This document shows positions 32,383 to 39,994 of a stretch of 40,771 nucleotides of DNA, piece after piece. A program made the translations under genes and the position numbers. The notes below the pieces were generated by a model. That model had not been told where the DNA came from. It saw nothing but the letters and a program-made list of their open reading frames with translations, and did no database searches. The DNA is taken from assembly GCA_022564695.1 (NCBI GenBank), contig JADFKX010000001.1, positions 1-40,771 of the forward strand. Reading direction: 5' to 3'. The DNA is from Chloroflexota bacterium. Its GTDB lineage: Bacteria > Chloroflexota > Dehalococcoidia > SM23-28-2 > RBG-16-64-32. Each line of letters starts with the position of its first letter. The first letter of the stretch is position 1.

Positions 32383-32568
32383 GTGCTCTTCATGTCCGAT
32401 GAGACGGAGGCCACCGACGCCGAGAGGCTGGCAGCAACCGTGGCCGAGCCGGTGGATGTCATCGTCTACGAAGGGGACGCCGCCCATGGGGTGCAGCTCC
32501 TTGCCAACCCCCGGGCGAAGCTGGCCATCCGCGATTGGCTGGCCGCGAACCTAGCCCTCGAAGAATAG
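32383..32568 (+). CDS. Candidate small acidic protein (58-61 aa), unknown function
   Basis: ORF with about 80 percent G/C at third codon positions (my count: 50 of 61 codons), like the flanking genes. Starts at GTG 32383 or ATG 32392. No convincing SD and no family recognised. Confidence 0.3.
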   Translation: MLFMSDETEATDAERLAATVAEPVDVIVYEGDAAHGVQLLANPRAKLAIRDWLAANLALEE

Positions 32569-32663: not shown

Positions 32664-32692
32664 TTGACATGTATGAGGCTACCTGCTAGCTT
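32664..32692 (+). promoter_or_regulatory. Sigma-70-type promoter driving the riboswitch leader
   Basis: TTGACA (32664-32669), a 17-nt spacer, then TAGCTT (32687-32692). The aptamer begins about 20 nt downstream. Confidence 0.55.
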
Positions 32693-32710
32693 CAAGACAA
32701 TCTAATACTG

Positions 32711-32848
32711 AAATCCGCGCCTAATCCCTGCCTCTGGCGGGGAGCGGGGGAACCACCCGCAGATGCGGGCTCCGGGGTGAATCTCGTCAAAAGCGAGTAG
32801 GCCAACTCCTTCGGCCGAACCCGTCAGCTAACCTCGCAGGCGTAGAAG
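32711..32848 (+). promoter_or_regulatory. ydaO/yuaA-type cyclic-di-AMP riboswitch aptamer
   Basis: Contains the conserved ydaO elements in the correct order: CGCGCCTAATCC..., GGGGGAACCAC, variable hairpin CCCGC-AGAT-GCGGG, GGGGTGAATC, hairpin CTCG-TCAAAAG-CGAG, TAGG, CCGAACCCGTCAGCTAACCTCGCAGGCG. Confidence 0.85.
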
Positions 32849-32872
32849 GAGAGGCTAGGTTCAAACCACTTT

Positions 32873-32903
32873 GAGGGGCGTGAGGCTAGGTCTCCCGCCC
32901 CTC
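32873..32903 (+). promoter_or_regulatory. GC-rich hairpin, probable riboswitch expression platform (terminator-like, no U-tract)
   Basis: GAGGGGCG, a 15-nt loop, then CGCCCCTC (8 perfect bp), 25 nt after the aptamer and 18 nt before ATG 32921. Confidence 0.4.
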
Positions 32904-32920
32904 TCGTCGTCCTCATACCC

Positions 32921-33556
32921 ATGGCTACGCGGGAAGGCGTCCGCATTATGACTCGACGCGAAGACGAGTCTGCCCCACCAGCGAGGCTCGGTTTCGTCTG
33001 GCGGCTGGAGTATACTCTCCTGATCGGCGTCGCCCTGCTGATGACCGCCTTCGCCATCGCCTTCTTCTATTTCGGCGCTGACACAAGCAACCTCAAGTCC
33101 TGGGGCTACGCCGGTATCTTCCTCATCAACGTGGTGGGCAGCGCCTCCATCCTCCTGCCCTCGCCGGCCGTGGCCAGCGTCGTTGGCGGCGGCGCTCTGC
33201 TCGACGATCTCCTCGGGGTGCCCGCCTTCATCTGGGTGGGCCTCGTCGCCGGCACGGGCGAGGCGCTCGGCGAGTTCACCGGCTACGCCGCTGGCTACGG
33301 CGGCCGCATCATCTTTGAGAACCGGCCGGAGTATGCGCGTGTCCAAAGATGGATGGAGCGCCGCGGCACGTTAACCATGTTTCTGCTCTCCATCTTTCCC
33401 AACCCGCTGTTCGATCTGGCCGGCGTGGCAGCGGGAGCTGTCAGGATGCCGATCCGGCGCTTCTTTCCGGCCGTACTAGCCGGAAAGATCATCAAGGATA
33501 CCTACCTGGCCGCTATCGGTGGCGTGGGCGCTTCCATCCTTACCCATCTCGTCTAG
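32921..33556 (+). CDS. YqaA-like / DedA-superfamily (VTT/SNARE-associated domain) membrane protein
   Basis: 211 aa, multi-TM, with the family-typical ..GEFTGYAAGYGG.. and ..FPNPLFDLAGVAAGAVRMPIRRFFPAVLAGKIIKD.. segments. Alternative start ATG 32948 is preceded by GGGAAGG. Confidence 0.85.
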   Translation: MATREGVRIMTRREDESAPPARLGFVWRLEYTLLIGVALLMTAFAIAFFYFGADTSNLKSWGYAGIFLINVVGSASILLPSPAVASVVGGGALLDDLLGVPAFIWVGLVAGTGEALGEFTGYAAGYGGRIIFENRPEYARVQRWMERRGTLTMFLLSIFPNPLFDLAGVAAGAVRMPIRRFFPAVLAGKIIKDTYLAAIGGVGASILTHLV

Positions 33557-33569
33557 CAAACTGCTAACT

Positions 33570-33599
33570 TTGACAGCCAATTTTGGCACGCAGTATACT
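33570..33599 (+). promoter_or_regulatory. Sigma-70-type promoter for yacL-ispD-ispF(-cysE-cysS)
   Basis: TTGACA (33570-33575), an 18-nt spacer, then TATACT (33594-33599), leaving a ~110-nt leader before ATG 33716. Confidence 0.6.
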
Positions 33600-33715
33600 C
33601 CAGCCAGGTTGAGCCACGCCGATGGCCAGCGCTGGTCCAAAGCTGTCTTAACTGAGGAGAGGACTCCCATTGAGGCGTGTCCCTCCGCCCAGGTGGGGTG
33701 GGGAGCAATTATCGG

Positions 33716-34771
33716 ATGACCGAAAACCTGACCGTCGTAGTCCGCGTCCTGGGCGCGATCTTCTTCGGTTTCCTCGGCTTGTACTCCGGCCTGGCTCTGG
33801 CCGAGGGTGATAGCGGACTGACACGCGTCCTGTTCTTGGTGGCAACGCCCGTGGGTTTCATTCTTTTCGGTACGTTGGTAACTCCCTTCATCATCATGTC
33901 CCCCCTCCAGAGGCTCCAAGAGTGGTCCAACACCATCCCGCCCCTGCAACTTGTTCTGGGCGCAATCGGCCTGTTTGCCGGGTTCCTGCTGGGCGCCTTG
34001 TCCACCCCCTTCCTTATCACCCTGCCGGGCGTCGGCGCCTGGGTTGCGCCTTTCGTCGTGAGCTTCCTATTCGGGCTGATCGGCGTTGTCGTTATGATCG
34101 GCCGCGAAGAGGAGTTAGCCGGCTTCCTCTCCCGCTACCTGCCGGGCGCAGCCAAATCCAACAACGGACGCCCCCGTGAGATCATCGTCGACACCAGCGT
34201 CATCATCGACGGACGCATCGCCGACGTGGCGATGACCGGCTTCCTCCAGGGCACCCTTATCGTCCCCCGCTTCATCCTTGATGAGCTCCGCCACGTTGCC
34301 GATTCGCAGGAGACCCTGCGACGCAACCGCGGCCGCCGCGGGCTGGATATGCTCAACCGGCTCCAGAAGGAGGCGCCTATCCCCGTACTGGTCAGCGAAG
34401 AGGACTTCCCTGACGCCCGCGACGCGGACGCCAAGCTCATCCGGCTGGCCATCAAACTCAAGGCGCCAATCCTCACCAATGACTTCAACCTGAACCGCAT
34501 CGCCGAACTGGAGGACGTCAAGGTGCTGAACATCAACGACCTGGCCAACGCTGTTAAGGTCGTCATCCTACCCGGCGAGGAGATGGCCGTGCACATCATC
34601 CAGGAGGGGAAAGAGGCAGGCCAGGGCGTCGGCTTCCTAGACGACGGCACTATGGTCGTCGTCGAAGGCGGCCGCCGCTATCTCAACGAGAAGATTGACG
34701 TCATAGTCACCCGCATCCTACAGACCGTAGCTGGGAGGATGATCTTCGCCCAGCCCAAGGGCGCCGCCTAG
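33716..34771 (+). CDS. yacL: Membrane-anchored PIN + TRAM domain protein (YacL family)
   Basis: N-terminal 4 TM segments; PIN region (IVDTSVIIDGRI ... DAKLIRLA ... ILTNDFNLN); C-terminal TRAM-like beta region (GQGVGFLDDGTMVVVEGG). Conserved position upstream of ispD-ispF. ATG 33716 is preferred over the track's GTG 33677. Confidence 0.9.
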   Translation: MTENLTVVVRVLGAIFFGFLGLYSGLALAEGDSGLTRVLFLVATPVGFILFGTLVTPFIIMSPLQRLQEWSNTIPPLQLVLGAIGLFAGFLLGALSTPFLITLPGVGAWVAPFVVSFLFGLIGVVVMIGREEELAGFLSRYLPGAAKSNNGRPREIIVDTSVIIDGRIADVAMTGFLQGTLIVPRFILDELRHVADSQETLRRNRGRRGLDMLNRLQKEAPIPVLVSEEDFPDARDADAKLIRLAIKLKAPILTNDFNLNRIAELEDVKVLNINDLANAVKVVILPGEEMAVHIIQEGKEAGQGVGFLDDGTMVVVEGGRRYLNEKIDVIVTRILQTVAGRMIFAQPKGAA

Positions 34772-34778
34772 GCCTATC

Positions 34779-35465
34779 GTGAGCGCTCTCTCATCCGCAA
34801 GCGCCATCGTCGTTGCCGCCGGCAGCAGCGCCCGCATGCGTGGCGCCGATAAGCTGTTCGCCCCACTGGCCGGACGCCCCCTCCTGGCCCACGTCTTGTC
34901 CCGCTTCCAGGAGTCGCCTGCCGTGAACCGTATCGCGCTCGTCCTCTCGTCCGAGAATCTTGAACGGGGCCGTGATCTGGCGGCCGAGTACGGCATGACC
35001 AAGATCTCCCCCATCTGCCTGGGCGGGCCCCGCCGCCAGGACTCCGTCCGCCTGGGACTAGAGGCCCTTGGCGAATGCGATTGGGTGCTCGTGCATGACG
35101 GCGCCCGTCTACTCGTCAACCCGCTCATATCGGAAGGGCTGGAGGCGGCGCAAGAGACCGGCGCCGCCGTCCCCGCCGTGCCCATCACCGACACCGTCAA
35201 GTCGGCCGGCCCGGACGGGACCGTGGAACGCACGCTGGACCGCAGCCGCCTCTGGGCCGCCCAGACCCCGCAGGTCTTTCGCTATGATCTCCTGCTCCGC
35301 GCCCACCGGGAGATCACCGCCGATGTGACGGACGACGCCGCCATGCTGGAGGCGCTGGGCCTGCCGGTCAAGCTATACTTGGGCTCACCCTTGAACATCA
35401 AGGTGACCAACCTGGAAGACCTCCGCACGGCGGAAGCGCTACTGGAGGGCGCGACAAGCCCATGA
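34779..35465 (+). CDS. ispD: 2-C-methyl-D-erythritol 4-phosphate cytidylyltransferase
   Basis: 228 aa. N-terminal AIVVAAGSSARMRGADKLF nucleotide-binding motif and ..TDTVK.. / ..QTPQVF.. motifs. GTG start. Confidence 0.93.
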   Translation: MSALSSASAIVVAAGSSARMRGADKLFAPLAGRPLLAHVLSRFQESPAVNRIALVLSSENLERGRDLAAEYGMTKISPICLGGPRRQDSVRLGLEALGECDWVLVHDGARLLVNPLISEGLEAAQETGAAVPAVPITDTVKSAGPDGTVERTLDRSRLWAAQTPQVFRYDLLLRAHREITADVTDDAAMLEALGLPVKLYLGSPLNIKVTNLEDLRTAEALLEGATSP

Positions 35466-35495
35466 GCCATCACCCCTAACCTATCGCAGATCGAC

Positions 35496-35975
35496 ATGCG
35501 TATCGGCATCGGCTATGATATACACCGCTTCCAGGAGGGGAGACCCCTCGTCCTGGGAGGCCTGACGCTGCCCGGGGAGACCGGCCTCGGCGGCCACAGT
35601 GACGCCGATGTTCTCCTCCACGCCGTGATCGACGCTCTCCTGGGCGCCGCTGGTCTGGGTGACATCGGCCAGCGCTATCCGCCGGACGACCCCGCTTGGG
35701 CGGGCGCCGACAGCCGCCTCCTCCTGATCGAGGTTAAAGCCGCGGTGGAGGAGGCCGGATACCGTCCGGAGAACGTGGACGCCACGGTCATCGCCGAGCG
35801 GCCCAAGCTTGGCCCGCACCTGTCGCAGATGCGACAGGTGATTGGCGAAGCGCTGGGGCTGGACGCGGGCCGAGTCAACGTCAAGGCCACCACGAACGAG
35901 GGGATCGGCGCCATAGGCAGCGGCGAAGGCATCGCCGCCATCGCCGTAGCGCTCCTGGGAGAAGCGGAGCGATGA
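35496..35975 (+). CDS. ispF: 2-C-methyl-D-erythritol 2,4-cyclodiphosphate synthase
   Basis: 159 aa with MRIGIGYDIHRF, GHSDADVLLHAVIDALLGA and ..AERPKL.. motifs. Confidence 0.95.
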   Translation: MRIGIGYDIHRFQEGRPLVLGGLTLPGETGLGGHSDADVLLHAVIDALLGAAGLGDIGQRYPPDDPAWAGADSRLLLIEVKAAVEEAGYRPENVDATVIAERPKLGPHLSQMRQVIGEALGLDAGRVNVKATTNEGIGAIGSGEGIAAIAVALLGEAER

Positions 35976-36060
35976 TAGAACGGCAGCGTCAGCAACCACC
36001 ATCCCTCAGCGAGGGGCCGGGCCTCCGTCCCAGCGCCGCCCTGCGCTGCGCCTGTAATGA

Positions 36061-36084
36061 GGCCTCGACATCACAGTCGAGGCC
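36061..36084 (+). other. Perfect 9-bp hairpin in the ispF-cysE spacer
   Basis: GGCCTCGAC-ATCACA-GTCGAGGCC with no following U-tract. A second 6-bp hairpin, CAGCGC-CGCCCT-GCGCTG, lies at 36031-36048. Confidence 0.4.
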
Positions 36085-36131
36085 GGCAGCAGCGAACACC
36101 TTCGTACACCCCGGAAAAGGACGGACGGCCA

Positions 36132-36800
36132 ATGGGGCTCTTACAAAGCGTTAGAAGTGACATACAGGCGGCCAAGGAGCGCGATCCCGCCGCCACCTCC
36201 ACTCTGGAGATCATCTTCGCCTATCCCGGCTTTCACGCCAGACAGCTGCACCGCCTCGCCCACACCCTCCACACGCACGGGCTGCGCCTGCCTGCCCGCA
36301 TCATCTCTCACCTGGGCCGCGCCCTGACCGGCATCGAGATCCACCCCTGCGCTCAGATCGGCGAGAAGTTCTTCATAGACCACGGCATGGGCGTGGTGAT
36401 CGGGGAGACCACCGTCATCGGCAATAACTGCCACCTTTACCAGGGTGTCACCCTGGGCGGCACCAGCACCAAGCGTGCCAAACGACATCCCACCCTGGGC
36501 GACGGCGTGATCGTCGGCGCCGGCGCCAAGATCATCGGCGCCGTCAACATCGGCGATGACGCCAAGATCGGCGCCGGTTCCGTCGTCGTGACCAACGTCC
36601 CCCCCAACGCCACCGTCGTCGGCGTCCCCGGCCACATCGTCGCCTACGCCGACCCCGGCGACGAGACCATCCTCAAACTGCCTGACCCTGAGTGGGACGT
36701 CATCCAGCAGCTGGAAAACCGGGTCGCGGAGCTGGAGCAGCGCATCGTCGAGCTGGAGAGCCACAAGCAGACCGCCTCTGCGCCGGTGAAGGACGAATAG
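36132..36800 (+). CDS. cysE: Serine O-acetyltransferase
   Basis: N-terminal SATase helix region (IQAAKERDPAA..LEIIFAYPGFHA) and left-handed beta-helix hexapeptide repeats (GVVIGETTVIGNNCHLYQGVTLGG...). ATG 36132 is preferred over the track start at 36057. C-terminal coiled-coil-like tail. Confidence 0.92.
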   Translation: MGLLQSVRSDIQAAKERDPAATSTLEIIFAYPGFHARQLHRLAHTLHTHGLRLPARIISHLGRALTGIEIHPCAQIGEKFFIDHGMGVVIGETTVIGNNCHLYQGVTLGGTSTKRAKRHPTLGDGVIVGAGAKIIGAVNIGDDAKIGAGSVVVTNVPPNATVVGVPGHIVAYADPGDETILKLPDPEWDVIQQLENRVAELEQRIVELESHKQTASAPVKDE

Positions 36801-36806
36801 AGACCC

Positions 36807-38180
36807 GTGAAACTGTACAACACCCTGAGCCGCCGCGTGGAGGAGTTCTCTCCCTCAGGCGACGAGGTGAAGATGTACGTCTGCGGCCCCAACGTCTACG
36901 CCCCCTGCCACATCGGCCACGCCATGAGCTACATCGTCTTCGATGTCCTCCGCCGCTACCTGGAGTACTGCGGCTATAAAGTGAAACACGTCCAGAACTT
37001 CACAGATATCGAGGACAACATCATCAACCGCGCCCGTGCTGAAGGCTCCACGATCGATGAGCTGGCCGAACGACACATCGAGCAGTTCTTCGAAGATTTT
37101 GCCCCGCTGAACATCCTCAAGGCGCACATCTACCCCCGCGCCACCCACGAGCTCCCCTCCATAATCGAGATGGTCCAGCGGCTCATCGATAACGGCAACG
37201 CCTACCAGGCGGGCAGCGATGTCTACTTCCGCGTGAACAGCAGGCCGGACTACGGCAAGCTCTCCTCCCGCGACCTCGATTCGATGCTGGCAGGCGCCCG
37301 CATCCAGCCCGACGAAAACAAGGAGCACCCCGGCGACTTCGTACTCTGGAAGGCATCCAAGCCCGGCGAACCCGCCTGGGACAGCCCCTGGGGCAAGGGC
37401 CGCCCCGGCTGGCACATCGAGTGCTCCGCTATGTCCCTCAAGTACCTCGGCCACCCCCTGGACATCCACGGCGGCGGCCAGGACCTCATCTTCCCCCATC
37501 ACGAAAACGAGATCGCCCAGAGCGAGAGCTACACCGATGACCGCAAGCCGTTCGTCCGCTTCTGGCTGCACAACGGCCTCATGCGCCTCGCCGAGAGCGA
37601 AGAGAAGATGACCCGCCACCTGGGGAACCTGGTGCCCATCCGCGATGTCGTTCACCGCTACGGCGGCGACGGCCTTCGCATCTTCATCCTCAACTCTCAC
37701 TACCGCAGCCCCATCACGTTTGCGGAGGAGAGCCTGGAGGCCTCCAAGCGGGCGGCGGAGCGGCTGCGCACGGCCGTCGCGACACCCGGCGGAGACGCGG
37801 ACCCAGCCGCCGACCCGGCCCCCCTCAAGCAACGCTTCCTGGACGCCATGGACGACGACTTGAACACCGCCGGCGCCCTGGGAGCACTCTTCGACCTGGC
37901 ACGCGAGATCAACCGCGCCCGCGACGACGGCCGTAAGACTGAGGGGGCGCAGGCCGCCCTTCGAGAGCTGGCCGGCGTGCTCGGCCTCACCCTCGCCGGG
38001 CCCCAGACCGACGGCGACGCGTCCGCCGAGCCGTTCATTGAGCTTCTAATGGAGCTGCGCGACGACCTGCGCGACGCCAAGCAGTATGAGCTTTCAGACA
38101 AGCTGCGGGAACGCCTCTCCCAGATGGGCGTGATCCTTGAGGATTCCGCCCAGGGAACCCGTTGGCGGCTGAAGAGCTAA
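36807..38180 (+). CDS. cysS: Cysteine--tRNA ligase
   Basis: 457 aa with HIGH (CHIGHAMS), zinc/cysteine-binding WHIECSAM and HGGGQDLIFPHHENEIAQ, and an anticodon-binding domain (DDDLNTAGALGALFDL). GTG start. The KMSKS position reads KMTRH. Confidence 0.94.
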   Translation: MKLYNTLSRRVEEFSPSGDEVKMYVCGPNVYAPCHIGHAMSYIVFDVLRRYLEYCGYKVKHVQNFTDIEDNIINRARAEGSTIDELAERHIEQFFEDFAPLNILKAHIYPRATHELPSIIEMVQRLIDNGNAYQAGSDVYFRVNSRPDYGKLSSRDLDSMLAGARIQPDENKEHPGDFVLWKASKPGEPAWDSPWGKGRPGWHIECSAMSLKYLGHPLDIHGGGQDLIFPHHENEIAQSESYTDDRKPFVRFWLHNGLMRLAESEEKMTRHLGNLVPIRDVVHRYGGDGLRIFILNSHYRSPITFAEESLEASKRAAERLRTAVATPGGDADPAADPAPLKQRFLDAMDDDLNTAGALGALFDLAREINRARDDGRKTEGAQAALRELAGVLGLTLAGPQTDGDASAEPFIELLMELRDDLRDAKQYELSDKLRERLSQMGVILEDSAQGTRWRLKS

Positions 38181-38293: not shown

Positions 38294-38368
38294 GCCGAAG
38301 TGGCGCAATGGTAGCGCAAGCGATTTGTAATCGCTAGGTTGGGGGTTCGATTCCCTCCTTCGGCTCCA
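38294..38368 (+). tRNA. tRNA-Thr (anticodon TGT), CCA encoded
   Basis: Manual cloverleaf fold: acceptor GCCGAAG/CTTCGGC, D stem GCGC/GCGC, anticodon stem AGCGA/TCGCT with loop TTTGTAA, T arm GGGGG-TTCGATT-CCCTC, discriminator T, CCA. Confidence 0.9.
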
Positions 38369-38462
38369 GGAGCAACAGGTAGGTAGTAACCATAGGAGGC
38401 CGGAGTGGTCCCTGTGGACACTGAAGCCGATTCCCAACCTCCTGCATCGGAGCGGAACCAGC

Positions 38463-38550
38463 GGCGGGGTGGGTGAGTGGTTAAAACCACCGGGCTGTAA
38501 ACTCGGCGCCCTGACGGGCTACGCAGGTTCGAATCCTGCCCCCGCCACCA
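38463..38550 (+). tRNA. tRNA-Tyr (anticodon GTA), long variable arm, CCA encoded
   Basis: Acceptor GGCGGGG/CCCCGCC, anticodon stem CCGGG/CTCGG with loop CTGTAAA, long variable arm, T arm GCAGG-TTCGAAT-CCTGC, discriminator A, CCA. Confidence 0.9.
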
Positions 38551-38621
38551 GAGACAAACGCCAAGTCTAAGGAGGTAGCAGGCTGGGGGCACGGCAAGAC
38601 TCCCGCCACCGTTGCAGACCG

Positions 38622-38697
38622 GCCCACGTAGCTCAGCTGGAAGAGCGCGTTCTTGGTAAGAACGAGGTCACCGGTTCGAATCCGGTCGTGGGCTCCA
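38622..38697 (+). tRNA. tRNA-Thr (anticodon GGT), CCA encoded
   Basis: Acceptor GCCCACG/CGTGGGC, D arm TAGCTCAGCTGGAAGAGC, anticodon stem CGTTC/GAACG with loop TTGGTAA, T arm CCGGT-TCGAATC-CGG, CCA. Confidence 0.92.

Positions 38698-38794: not shown

Positions 38795-39994
<1,200 letters not shown>

Follow-up and report, generated by a model that had tools for sequence, protein, structure and literature searches.

A c-di-AMP riboswitch between rpoC and a VTT gene

The window analysed here is a stretch of 40,771 nucleotides of contig JADFKX010000001.1, which originates from a Chloroflexota bacterium of the class Dehalococcoidia; unless a locus is named, all coordinates refer to this stretch. 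It represents core genome and contains, in this order, the nuo operon, valS, an opp-type ABC (ATP-binding cassette) system, secA, prs, the gene of an EamA transporter, rpoB and rpoC. The latter is followed by a riboswitch of the cyclic di-AMP (c-di-AMP) class and the gene of a YqaA-like VTT-domain membrane protein, which are the subject of this work, and then by a PIN-TRAM gene, ispD, ispF, cysE, cysS, three tRNA genes and tuf.

Scanning the full window with Rfam 15 by means of cmscan gave four matches, namely the three tRNAs and the riboswitch. The riboswitch match to RF00379 has a score of 95.2 bits (gathering threshold 38) and an E-value of 2.1e-21. It spans model positions 1–134 of 134 without truncation, and every upper-case, i.e. 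strongly conserved, nucleotide of the consensus is matched in the alignment. The element is a full-length, well-formed c-di-AMP (ydaO/yuaA) class riboswitch. The first-pass annotation, which had been made from the sequence alone, assigned it to the same class on the basis of the hallmark segments TAATCC, GGGGGAACCAC, GGGGTGAATC, TAGG and CCGAACCCGTCAGCTAACCTCGCAGGCG. All of these are present in that order, and the covariance model corroborates the assignment. The interval originally given for the aptamer, 32711–32848, is slightly too short at its 3' end, because the pseudoknot strand runs to 32851 and the Rfam match to 32858. Beyond the aptamer, the functional unit takes in a terminator-like hairpin together with its tail and reaches as far as the ATG at 32921.

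The secondary structure was assessed with a MAFFT alignment of 19 leaders. In the Rfam helices, the pseudoknot and the hairpin, 95.6% of the pairs are standard, and 13 pairs display changes on both sides, i.e. are compensatory; none of 500 shuffles reached the observed values. As a control of the register, the 3' partners were slid by 1–3 columns, which left only 46–56% pairing. The pseudoknot, whose strands correspond to cucUuu and aaaGaG of the Rfam consensus, is paired in 99.2% of the cells and varies only by G-U wobble. Judged by the conserved core nucleotides, the window RNA would bind c-di-AMP selectively and, as is typical of the class, with two ligands per RNA.

The leader is preceded by the promoter TTGACA-N17-TAGCTT that had been proposed in the first-pass annotation, and an extended -10 TG was additionally found. 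The hexamer TAGCTT (32687–32692) is a weak -10 element; it was not reported by a generic promoter scan of the window because only three of its six positions match TATAAT. In the relatives, TTGACA is kept and the -10 element at the same place reads TGnTAGCTT, TGnTACGGT or TGnTATAGT. The leader promoter is therefore conserved. Transcription would start near 32699–32701, a few nucleotides 5' of the Rfam match.

With respect to the downstream gene, the ATGGC start at 32921 is conserved in most leaders, including divergent ones. An alternative start at 32948, which is preceded by GGAAGG, would give a protein of 202 residues and is the one annotated for many database homologues, was rejected. The ATG at 32921 was retained because this second ATG is not conserved across the leaders. 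The coordinates of all features are listed in Table 1.

Table 1. Features of the riboswitch leader, the VTT gene and the adjoining downstream region.
Feature	Coordinates	Strand	Basis or remark
-35 hexamer TTGACA	32664..32669	+	Sequence; this hexamer occupies the corresponding place in most of the 18 genome loci
Extended -10 element TGCTAGCTT (TGn + TAGCTT)	32684..32692	+	Sequence and relatives; 17-nt spacer after -35
c-di-AMP aptamer RF00379	32708..32858	+	cmscan and covariation in 19 leaders
Aptamer P1	32718-32721/32839-32842	+
Aptamer P2	32725-32743	+
Aptamer P3	32744-32749/32832-32837	+
Aptamer variable hairpin	32756-32769	+
Aptamer GGG/CCC helix	32775-32777/32820-32822	+
Two further aptamer hairpins	32783-32797 and 32800-32816	+
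Pseudoknot 5' strand CUCCUUC	32806..32812	+	Loop of the last aptamer hairpin (P7 loop); complementary to 32845-32851
Pseudoknot 3' strand GAAGGAG, followed by AGGC	32845..32851	+	Pairs with 32806-32812
Terminator-type hairpin GGGGCGUGAGGC-UAG-GUCUCCCGCCCC	32875..32901	+	12-bp GC-rich stem, interrupted by a single U.C mismatch
Pyrimidine/U tract UCUCGUCGUCCUC after the hairpin	32902..32914	+	The U tract of this genome is weak
Presumed regulated gene for a VTT-domain (DedA-superfamily, YqaA-like) membrane protein of 211 aa	32921..33556	+	Pfam PF09335, hhalign, AF2
Promoter TTGACA-N18-TATACT of the next gene (PIN-TRAM)	33570..33599	+	Promoter scan, 11/12 matches
PIN-TRAM gene	33677-34771		Downstream of the VTT gene

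Distribution of the riboswitch among related loci

Two surveys were used to determine how widely the riboswitch precedes this gene. In the first one, an alignment of the downstream protein served to search one genome per species of the GTDB. It yielded 18 loci with 64–99% protein identity, all of them from Dehalococcoidia/Chloroflexota metagenome-assembled genomes, and in 18 of 18 an RF00379 match with 89–99 bits lies directly upstream of the VTT orthologue. In the second one, metagenomes were searched with a broader alignment of 12 sequences, and every locus was scanned with Rfam. This gave 80 further loci with 82–37% protein identity, for which a pattern search agreed with the Rfam scans. 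Among the metagenome loci of at least 59% identity, the riboswitch is present in 18 of the 19 that could be assessed. The pairing of the riboswitch with a YqaA-like gene, which the first-pass annotation had noted for the window, is thus conserved. For genomes and metagenomes combined, riboswitch and hairpin precede the orthologous gene at 36 of 37 assessable related loci (at least 59% identity), and the RF00379 scores of the relatives are 78–99 bits overall.

The sole exception at this level of identity is L024, where a decayed riboswitch (L024:1360-1470) lies upstream of a VTT orthologue of 62% identity. The remnant retains a P1/P2-like start (GACGCC..ATCCCGCTGCGGCGGG), the purine tail GGAGAGGC and a terminator-like hairpin. 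The aptamer core is deleted, and no Rfam match is obtained for this locus even at E≤1.

Among the distant homologues (at most 56% identity), the riboswitch was found in none of 43 assessable metagenome loci. Four of the riboswitch-free homologues, L037, L038, L039 and L041, are 52–56% identical and are positional orthologues, with rpoC upstream or PIN-TRAM or ispD/ispF downstream. Not even a weak or degenerate RF00379 match was detected in these positional orthologues at E≤1. In two of them (L037:1316-1501, L038:1268-1501) nothing but a short promoter with the -10 box TGnTATCAT, located a few nucleotides before the ATG, separates the gene from the preceding rpoC terminator, an arrangement that appears to be of the short-leader or leaderless type. 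The presence of the riboswitch at identities of 59% or more and its absence from the distant homologues, the positional orthologues among them, argue that it marks one clade of the orthologue group; it would have been gained in this clade or lost outside of it.

Nine of the 18 genome loci possess a further element, a divergently transcribed gene for a TetR-family regulator with a BetI-type C-terminal domain (PF13977), which is situated 150–250 nt upstream of the promoter of the riboswitch (all on the - strand; L004:1997-2593, L005:1938-2621, L007, L008:1404-2174, L009, L010, L012:1858-2589, L016 and L017). It is missing from the window and its closest relatives. Its presence suggests that the lineages which possess it have a protein-based control in addition to the riboswitch.

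Expression platform and regulated unit

The aptamer is separated by a spacer of ~20–25 nt from the terminator-type hairpin, which has a ΔG of ~ -22.7 kcal/mol if the flanking GA/UC pairs are counted. All 37 riboswitch-positive leaders have a hairpin in this place. When this hairpin was considered alone in the 37 leaders, 92.6% of the cells are paired, and no shuffle matched the observed covariation score. Compensatory changes occur at two positions; for example, G-C is replaced by A-U in eight sequences. In many relatives the hairpin is followed by a proper U tract (UUUUUUCGUC, UUUUUUUGUG, UUUCUUGUU, UUUGUUCGU), good examples being L004, L009, L010, L014 and L026. Note that about half of the 35 distinct leaders, including that of the window (32880–32896), keep an internal mismatch halfway along the stem of the terminator. 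It is A.C in the relatives and U.C in the window, whereas the other half of the leaders have A-U there. Such a conserved mismatch could tune the stability of the terminator.

The aptamer architecture, core and pseudoknot are the same as in the c-di-AMP riboswitches of Bacillus, e.g. the leaders of B. subtilis kimA (ydaO) and B. thuringiensis kdpFABC, and as in these leaders the aptamer is followed by a hairpin and a U tract, which form a putative expression platform. For the B. thuringiensis kdp leader, c-di-AMP raises intrinsic termination in vitro and represses expression in vivo, which makes it an OFF switch (PMC6488665). The window element differs from the Bacillus elements in its host, an uncultured, GC-rich Dehalococcoidia lineage, in its downstream gene, which codes for a YqaA-like VTT protein and not for a K+/osmolyte transporter or a cell-wall enzyme, in its weak U tract, and in that an antiterminator is not evident. 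On the basis of the common layout (aptamer, spacer, hairpin with U tract, start codon) and of the kdp precedent, it is likely that the element is a transcriptional OFF switch, which acts by premature termination and controls the YqaA-like gene such that it is expressed at low c-di-AMP. We infer the OFF polarity and, as discussed below, the identity of the antiterminator.

According to this mechanism, a sigma-70-type promoter (TTGACA-N17-TGnTAGCTT) would start a leader of ~220 nt, whose first ~150 nt would fold into the canonical c-di-AMP aptamer with its pseudoknot. Upon binding of c-di-AMP, P1, P3 and the pseudoknot would be locked, the downstream GC-rich hairpin would form, and transcription would stop in the U/pyrimidine tract ~10–20 nt before the start codon. 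At low c-di-AMP, the polymerase would read through, the single downstream YqaA-like gene would be expressed, and its product would join the low-c-di-AMP regulon.

Several observations weigh against this interpretation. The first ones concern the extent of the transcript. In L008, L010, L011, L017, L024 and L025, ispD is located only ~70–100 nt after the VTT gene with no visible terminator in between, and the window scan detected no terminator-like site directly after the VTT stop codon at 33556. Moreover, nearly all loci have kept the genes in the order VTT-(PIN-TRAM)-ispD-ispF. These findings would fit a longer transcript, in which read-through puts PIN-TRAM and/or ispD-ispF, i.e. the methylerythritol phosphate (MEP) isoprenoid pathway, partly under the control of c-di-AMP. 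Such an arrangement is unlikely. A strong promoter with 11 of 12 matches lies behind the VTT stop codon of the window and is conserved there in L001, L004, L005, L006, L009 and L028; the riboswitch-controlled unit is probably bounded by it on the 3' side. If ispD is the next gene after VTT, its ATG is preceded by a -10 box at a distance of 6–12 nt. Furthermore, the positional orthologues without the riboswitch share this gene order, and the synteny therefore looks ancestral rather than regulatory. Given the promoter of PIN-TRAM and the -10 boxes of ispD, the VTT gene is therefore the only one that is consistently tied to the riboswitch, and some read-through into the downstream genes is possible.

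The -10-like boxes before ispD read TACAAT, TATAAT or TATAGT (L008:3162-3190, L025:665-690, L016/L017:3600-3625, L024:2130-2175, L026:2118-2180). Their short distance from the ATG suggests that ispD transcripts are leaderless or near-leaderless in these Chloroflexota.

The second group of adverse observations concerns the expression platform. The tract is U-poor in the window and its closest relatives, with four U in the first 10 nt past the full stem, and intrinsic termination may therefore be inefficient in this genome. In addition, no consistent antiterminator emerged from prefix folding of 19 sequences, where minimum free energy structures of the nascent leader, which was taken as far as the loop of the terminator, contained no consistent partner for the 5' arm, or from duplex searches. 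The best candidate for such an element could be the tail GGAGAGGC (32848–32855). It shares nucleotides with the pseudoknot strand and repeats the terminator's inner 5' arm, which reads CGAGAGGC in relatives and CGUGAGGC in the window. This repeat reaches 10 nt or more in two separate clades, and in L035 the same A-to-G change has occurred in both copies. Once released from the pseudoknot, the purine tail could compete for the 3' arm GCCUCUC. As an antiterminator it is not compelling and would be kinetically weak, because the true 5' arm lies nearer and pairs with a longer part of the 3' arm. When the arms were compared with the aptamer by means of RNAduplex, the C-rich 3' arm often paired with the G-rich P2-3'/P3-5' segment GGGGAGCGGGGGA at -18 to -26 kcal/mol. 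This segment is a second candidate, which was not adopted; the pairing is probably compositional and long-range.

The degenerate U tract in the clade of the window and the lack of a defined antiterminator would also be compatible with a different use of the same aptamer and ligand, in which Rho-dependent termination, RNA stability or translation initiation is controlled and the hairpin is a structural or pause element. The ATG at 32921 is not preceded by a Shine-Dalgarno sequence, and initiation may thus be unconventional. We regard this alternative as improbable, considering the good U tracts in many relatives (including the five named above), the use of terminators by the characterised members of the class (PMC6488665), and the fact that the hairpin leaves the start codon and the -5 to -13 region uncovered. 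Translational control was also rejected as the main mechanism: the hairpin ends 17–19 nt before the ATG, so that the start codon and any Shine-Dalgarno sequence lie outside it.

The third point is that no diadenylate cyclase (DAC-domain) gene occurs among the genes of the 40-kb window, which was the region covered; it is only the intact aptamer that points to c-di-AMP in this organism. This missing cyclase gene might be quoted in favour of an inactive relic, or of a specificity variant that has ceased to respond to c-di-AMP, and so might the remnant in L024, which demonstrates that this lineage can lose the element. Such a reading is highly improbable: the match is of full length and high score with all conserved core nucleotides intact, and purifying selection is evident from the compensatory changes in 36 loci, whose protein identities go down to 59%.

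The YqaA-like protein and its possible role

DedA/VTT proteins are nearly universal and their substrates are debated; for the YqaA-type branch there are almost no functional data. The regulated gene had been described as coding for a VTT-domain protein, and this holds: the product matches PF09335 (VTT) at residues 89–199 with 45.4 bits (cut-off 33.9). This is its sole Pfam match, and NCBIfam gave no match for the protein. The same domain is carried by 120 of 120 homologues among the matches listed. An exhaustive search of 1.84 billion representatives returned 707 clusters at E≤1e-10 but no more than 27 at E≤1e-30, so that the tight orthologue group makes up a small part of a broad family, whose proteins have 190–230 residues.

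A 30-member family alignment was compared by means of hhalign with E. coli representatives of the three DedA subfamilies. YqaA (COG1238) was matched with a probability of 94.6% (E-value 6.5e-8, 107 columns), YdjX (COG0398) with 15.6% and YqjA (COG0586) with 0.1%. YqaA is thus the closest of the three, in agreement with the label that had been chosen in the first-pass annotation. In the AF2 model (pLDDT 86.2, pTM 0.75), helices are broken at residues 76–81 (LLPSP) and 159–161 (PNP), and helix-loop-helix re-entrant elements are located around P80–P82 and P160–P162. Across the family of the window protein, P82 does not vary at all, and P80, P160 and P162 hardly vary. The model thus predicts the VTT core topology with two re-entrant elements and conserved prolines. 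A sequence-profile search of the PDB gave nothing at E≤1, and Foldseek returned only meaningless PDB matches with TM values below 0.25.

The likeness to E. coli YqaA is most specific in the second re-entrant helix (RH2), where both proteins contain the motif P..D.....AG..R followed by GK. The window sequence PNPLFDLAGVAAGAVR aligns with P-VVGDLLCLLAGWMR of YqaA, such that D165, R175 and K189 correspond to D98, R108 and K123. As in COG1238, there are no arginines and no other basic residues at the RH2 tip of the window family. Unlike YqaA with its 142 residues, the window protein comprises 211 residues, which include an extra N-terminal tail and transmembrane helix. The family furthermore has an invariant GE..GE motif of its own (E114/E118), and the window clade has a seven-residue insertion, LGVPAFI. 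The criteria for COG1238/YqaA include a conserved acidic residue at the first re-entrant helix (RH1) tip (PMC10127716). In YqaA this is E25 in the sequence PGNSE, whereas the window family has A, V or G at this position within PSPAVAS or P.PG.. and no Asp or Glu. It is therefore to be regarded as YqaA-like and not as a strict member of COG1238.

The proposed undecaprenyl-phosphate flippases of COG0586 are defined by two arginines at the RH2 tip and by acidic residues in RH1 (PMC10127716). With these proteins, among them E. coli YqjA/YghB and B. subtilis UptA, the window family shares PF09335 and the general predicted topology with two re-entrant helices. In contrast, Ser/Ala and Leu/Phe replace the two RH2 arginines, and RH1 lacks an acidic residue. 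Together with the hhalign value for YqjA, this weakens the suggestion of the first-pass annotation that the protein may be involved in lipid-carrier recycling. A general role of the YqaA-like protein in envelope or membrane homeostasis is possible. Its function probably lies in the homeostasis of ions, of osmotic balance or of the membrane rather than in the flipping of undecaprenyl phosphate.

According to a review, riboswitches of this class are associated with K+ transporters, amino-acid transporters, cell-wall remodelling and osmotic-shock genes (PMC7266159). A literature search found no paper that links the c-di-AMP riboswitch or ydaO to DedA, YqaA, TVP38, VTT or SNARE-associated proteins, with the proviso that the pairing may have been tabulated earlier in the two primary surveys of the class; nothing relevant was found that links c-di-AMP with Chloroflexi or Dehalococcoidia. 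The view that a VTT/YqaA protein is a non-classical target fits this literature. While the riboswitch class is well known, its pairing with a YqaA-like gene family appears to be unreported. New are the regulated gene family and the phylogenetic pattern, i.e. conservation in one Dehalococcoidia clade, absence from positional orthologues and a single case of decay.

The known members of the low-c-di-AMP regulon are K+ and osmolyte importers and cell-wall remodelling enzymes. We tentatively consider, as a possibility with less than even chances, that the YqaA-like VTT family is a genuine effector of this osmotic/K+ regulon. Low c-di-AMP would then induce the protein, and its substrate would be a cation, an osmolyte or a lipid that is uncharged or cationic. 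If so, a YqaA-like effector would adjust turgor or membrane properties, c-di-AMP signalling would for the first time have a regulatory link to the functionally enigmatic DedA superfamily, and the uncharacterised COG1238-like branch would gain a concrete functional clue. The resulting hypothesis, that the YqaA-like gene is switched on at low c-di-AMP alongside K+/osmolyte uptake and envelope remodelling, is testable, and the known c-di-AMP regulon would be extended into Chloroflexota. As the riboswitch occurs in one clade only, the riboswitch-free positional orthologues offer a natural comparison for the purpose of the regulation, and the bearing, riboswitch-free and decayed loci together document the turnover of a riboswitch in a single gene neighbourhood. 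For YqaA-like DedA proteins this is a modest but real functional lead. Because the understanding of the riboswitch class itself is unchanged and its host here has not been cultured, the practical impact is rated as moderate.

The wider neighbourhood comprises additional features. The block VTT, PIN-TRAM (YacL-like)-ispD-ispF-cysE-cysS (32921–38180) presumably resembles the B. subtilis block disA-yacL-ispD-ispF-gltX-cysE-cysS, and by this resemblance the c-di-AMP-sensing unit sits where Firmicutes carry the cyclase gene disA. In the loci of relatives that were checked, radA/disA was not found upstream of the riboswitch; the genes there are TetR, ABC-transporter, P450 or glutamate-dehydrogenase genes. 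A small open reading frame for 61 residues (32383–32568, + strand) lies between rpoC and the riboswitch and has no match in Pfam or NCBIfam; its product is 85–90% identical in the closest relatives and 51–67% identical in L006 and L014. At the other end of the block, the genes for tRNA-Thr(UGU), tRNA-Tyr(GUA) and tRNA-Thr(GGU) at 38294–38697 are followed by tuf (38795–39994), a cluster which we take to resemble the tRNA-tufB cluster of other bacteria. tRNA genes are also located downstream of the VTT/ispDF block in L011, L024 and L026. Finally, and unrelated to the c-di-AMP riboswitch, a T-box leader (RF00230, 96.2 bits) was identified on a metagenome contig just downstream of a distant VTT homologue (L046:800-1097).

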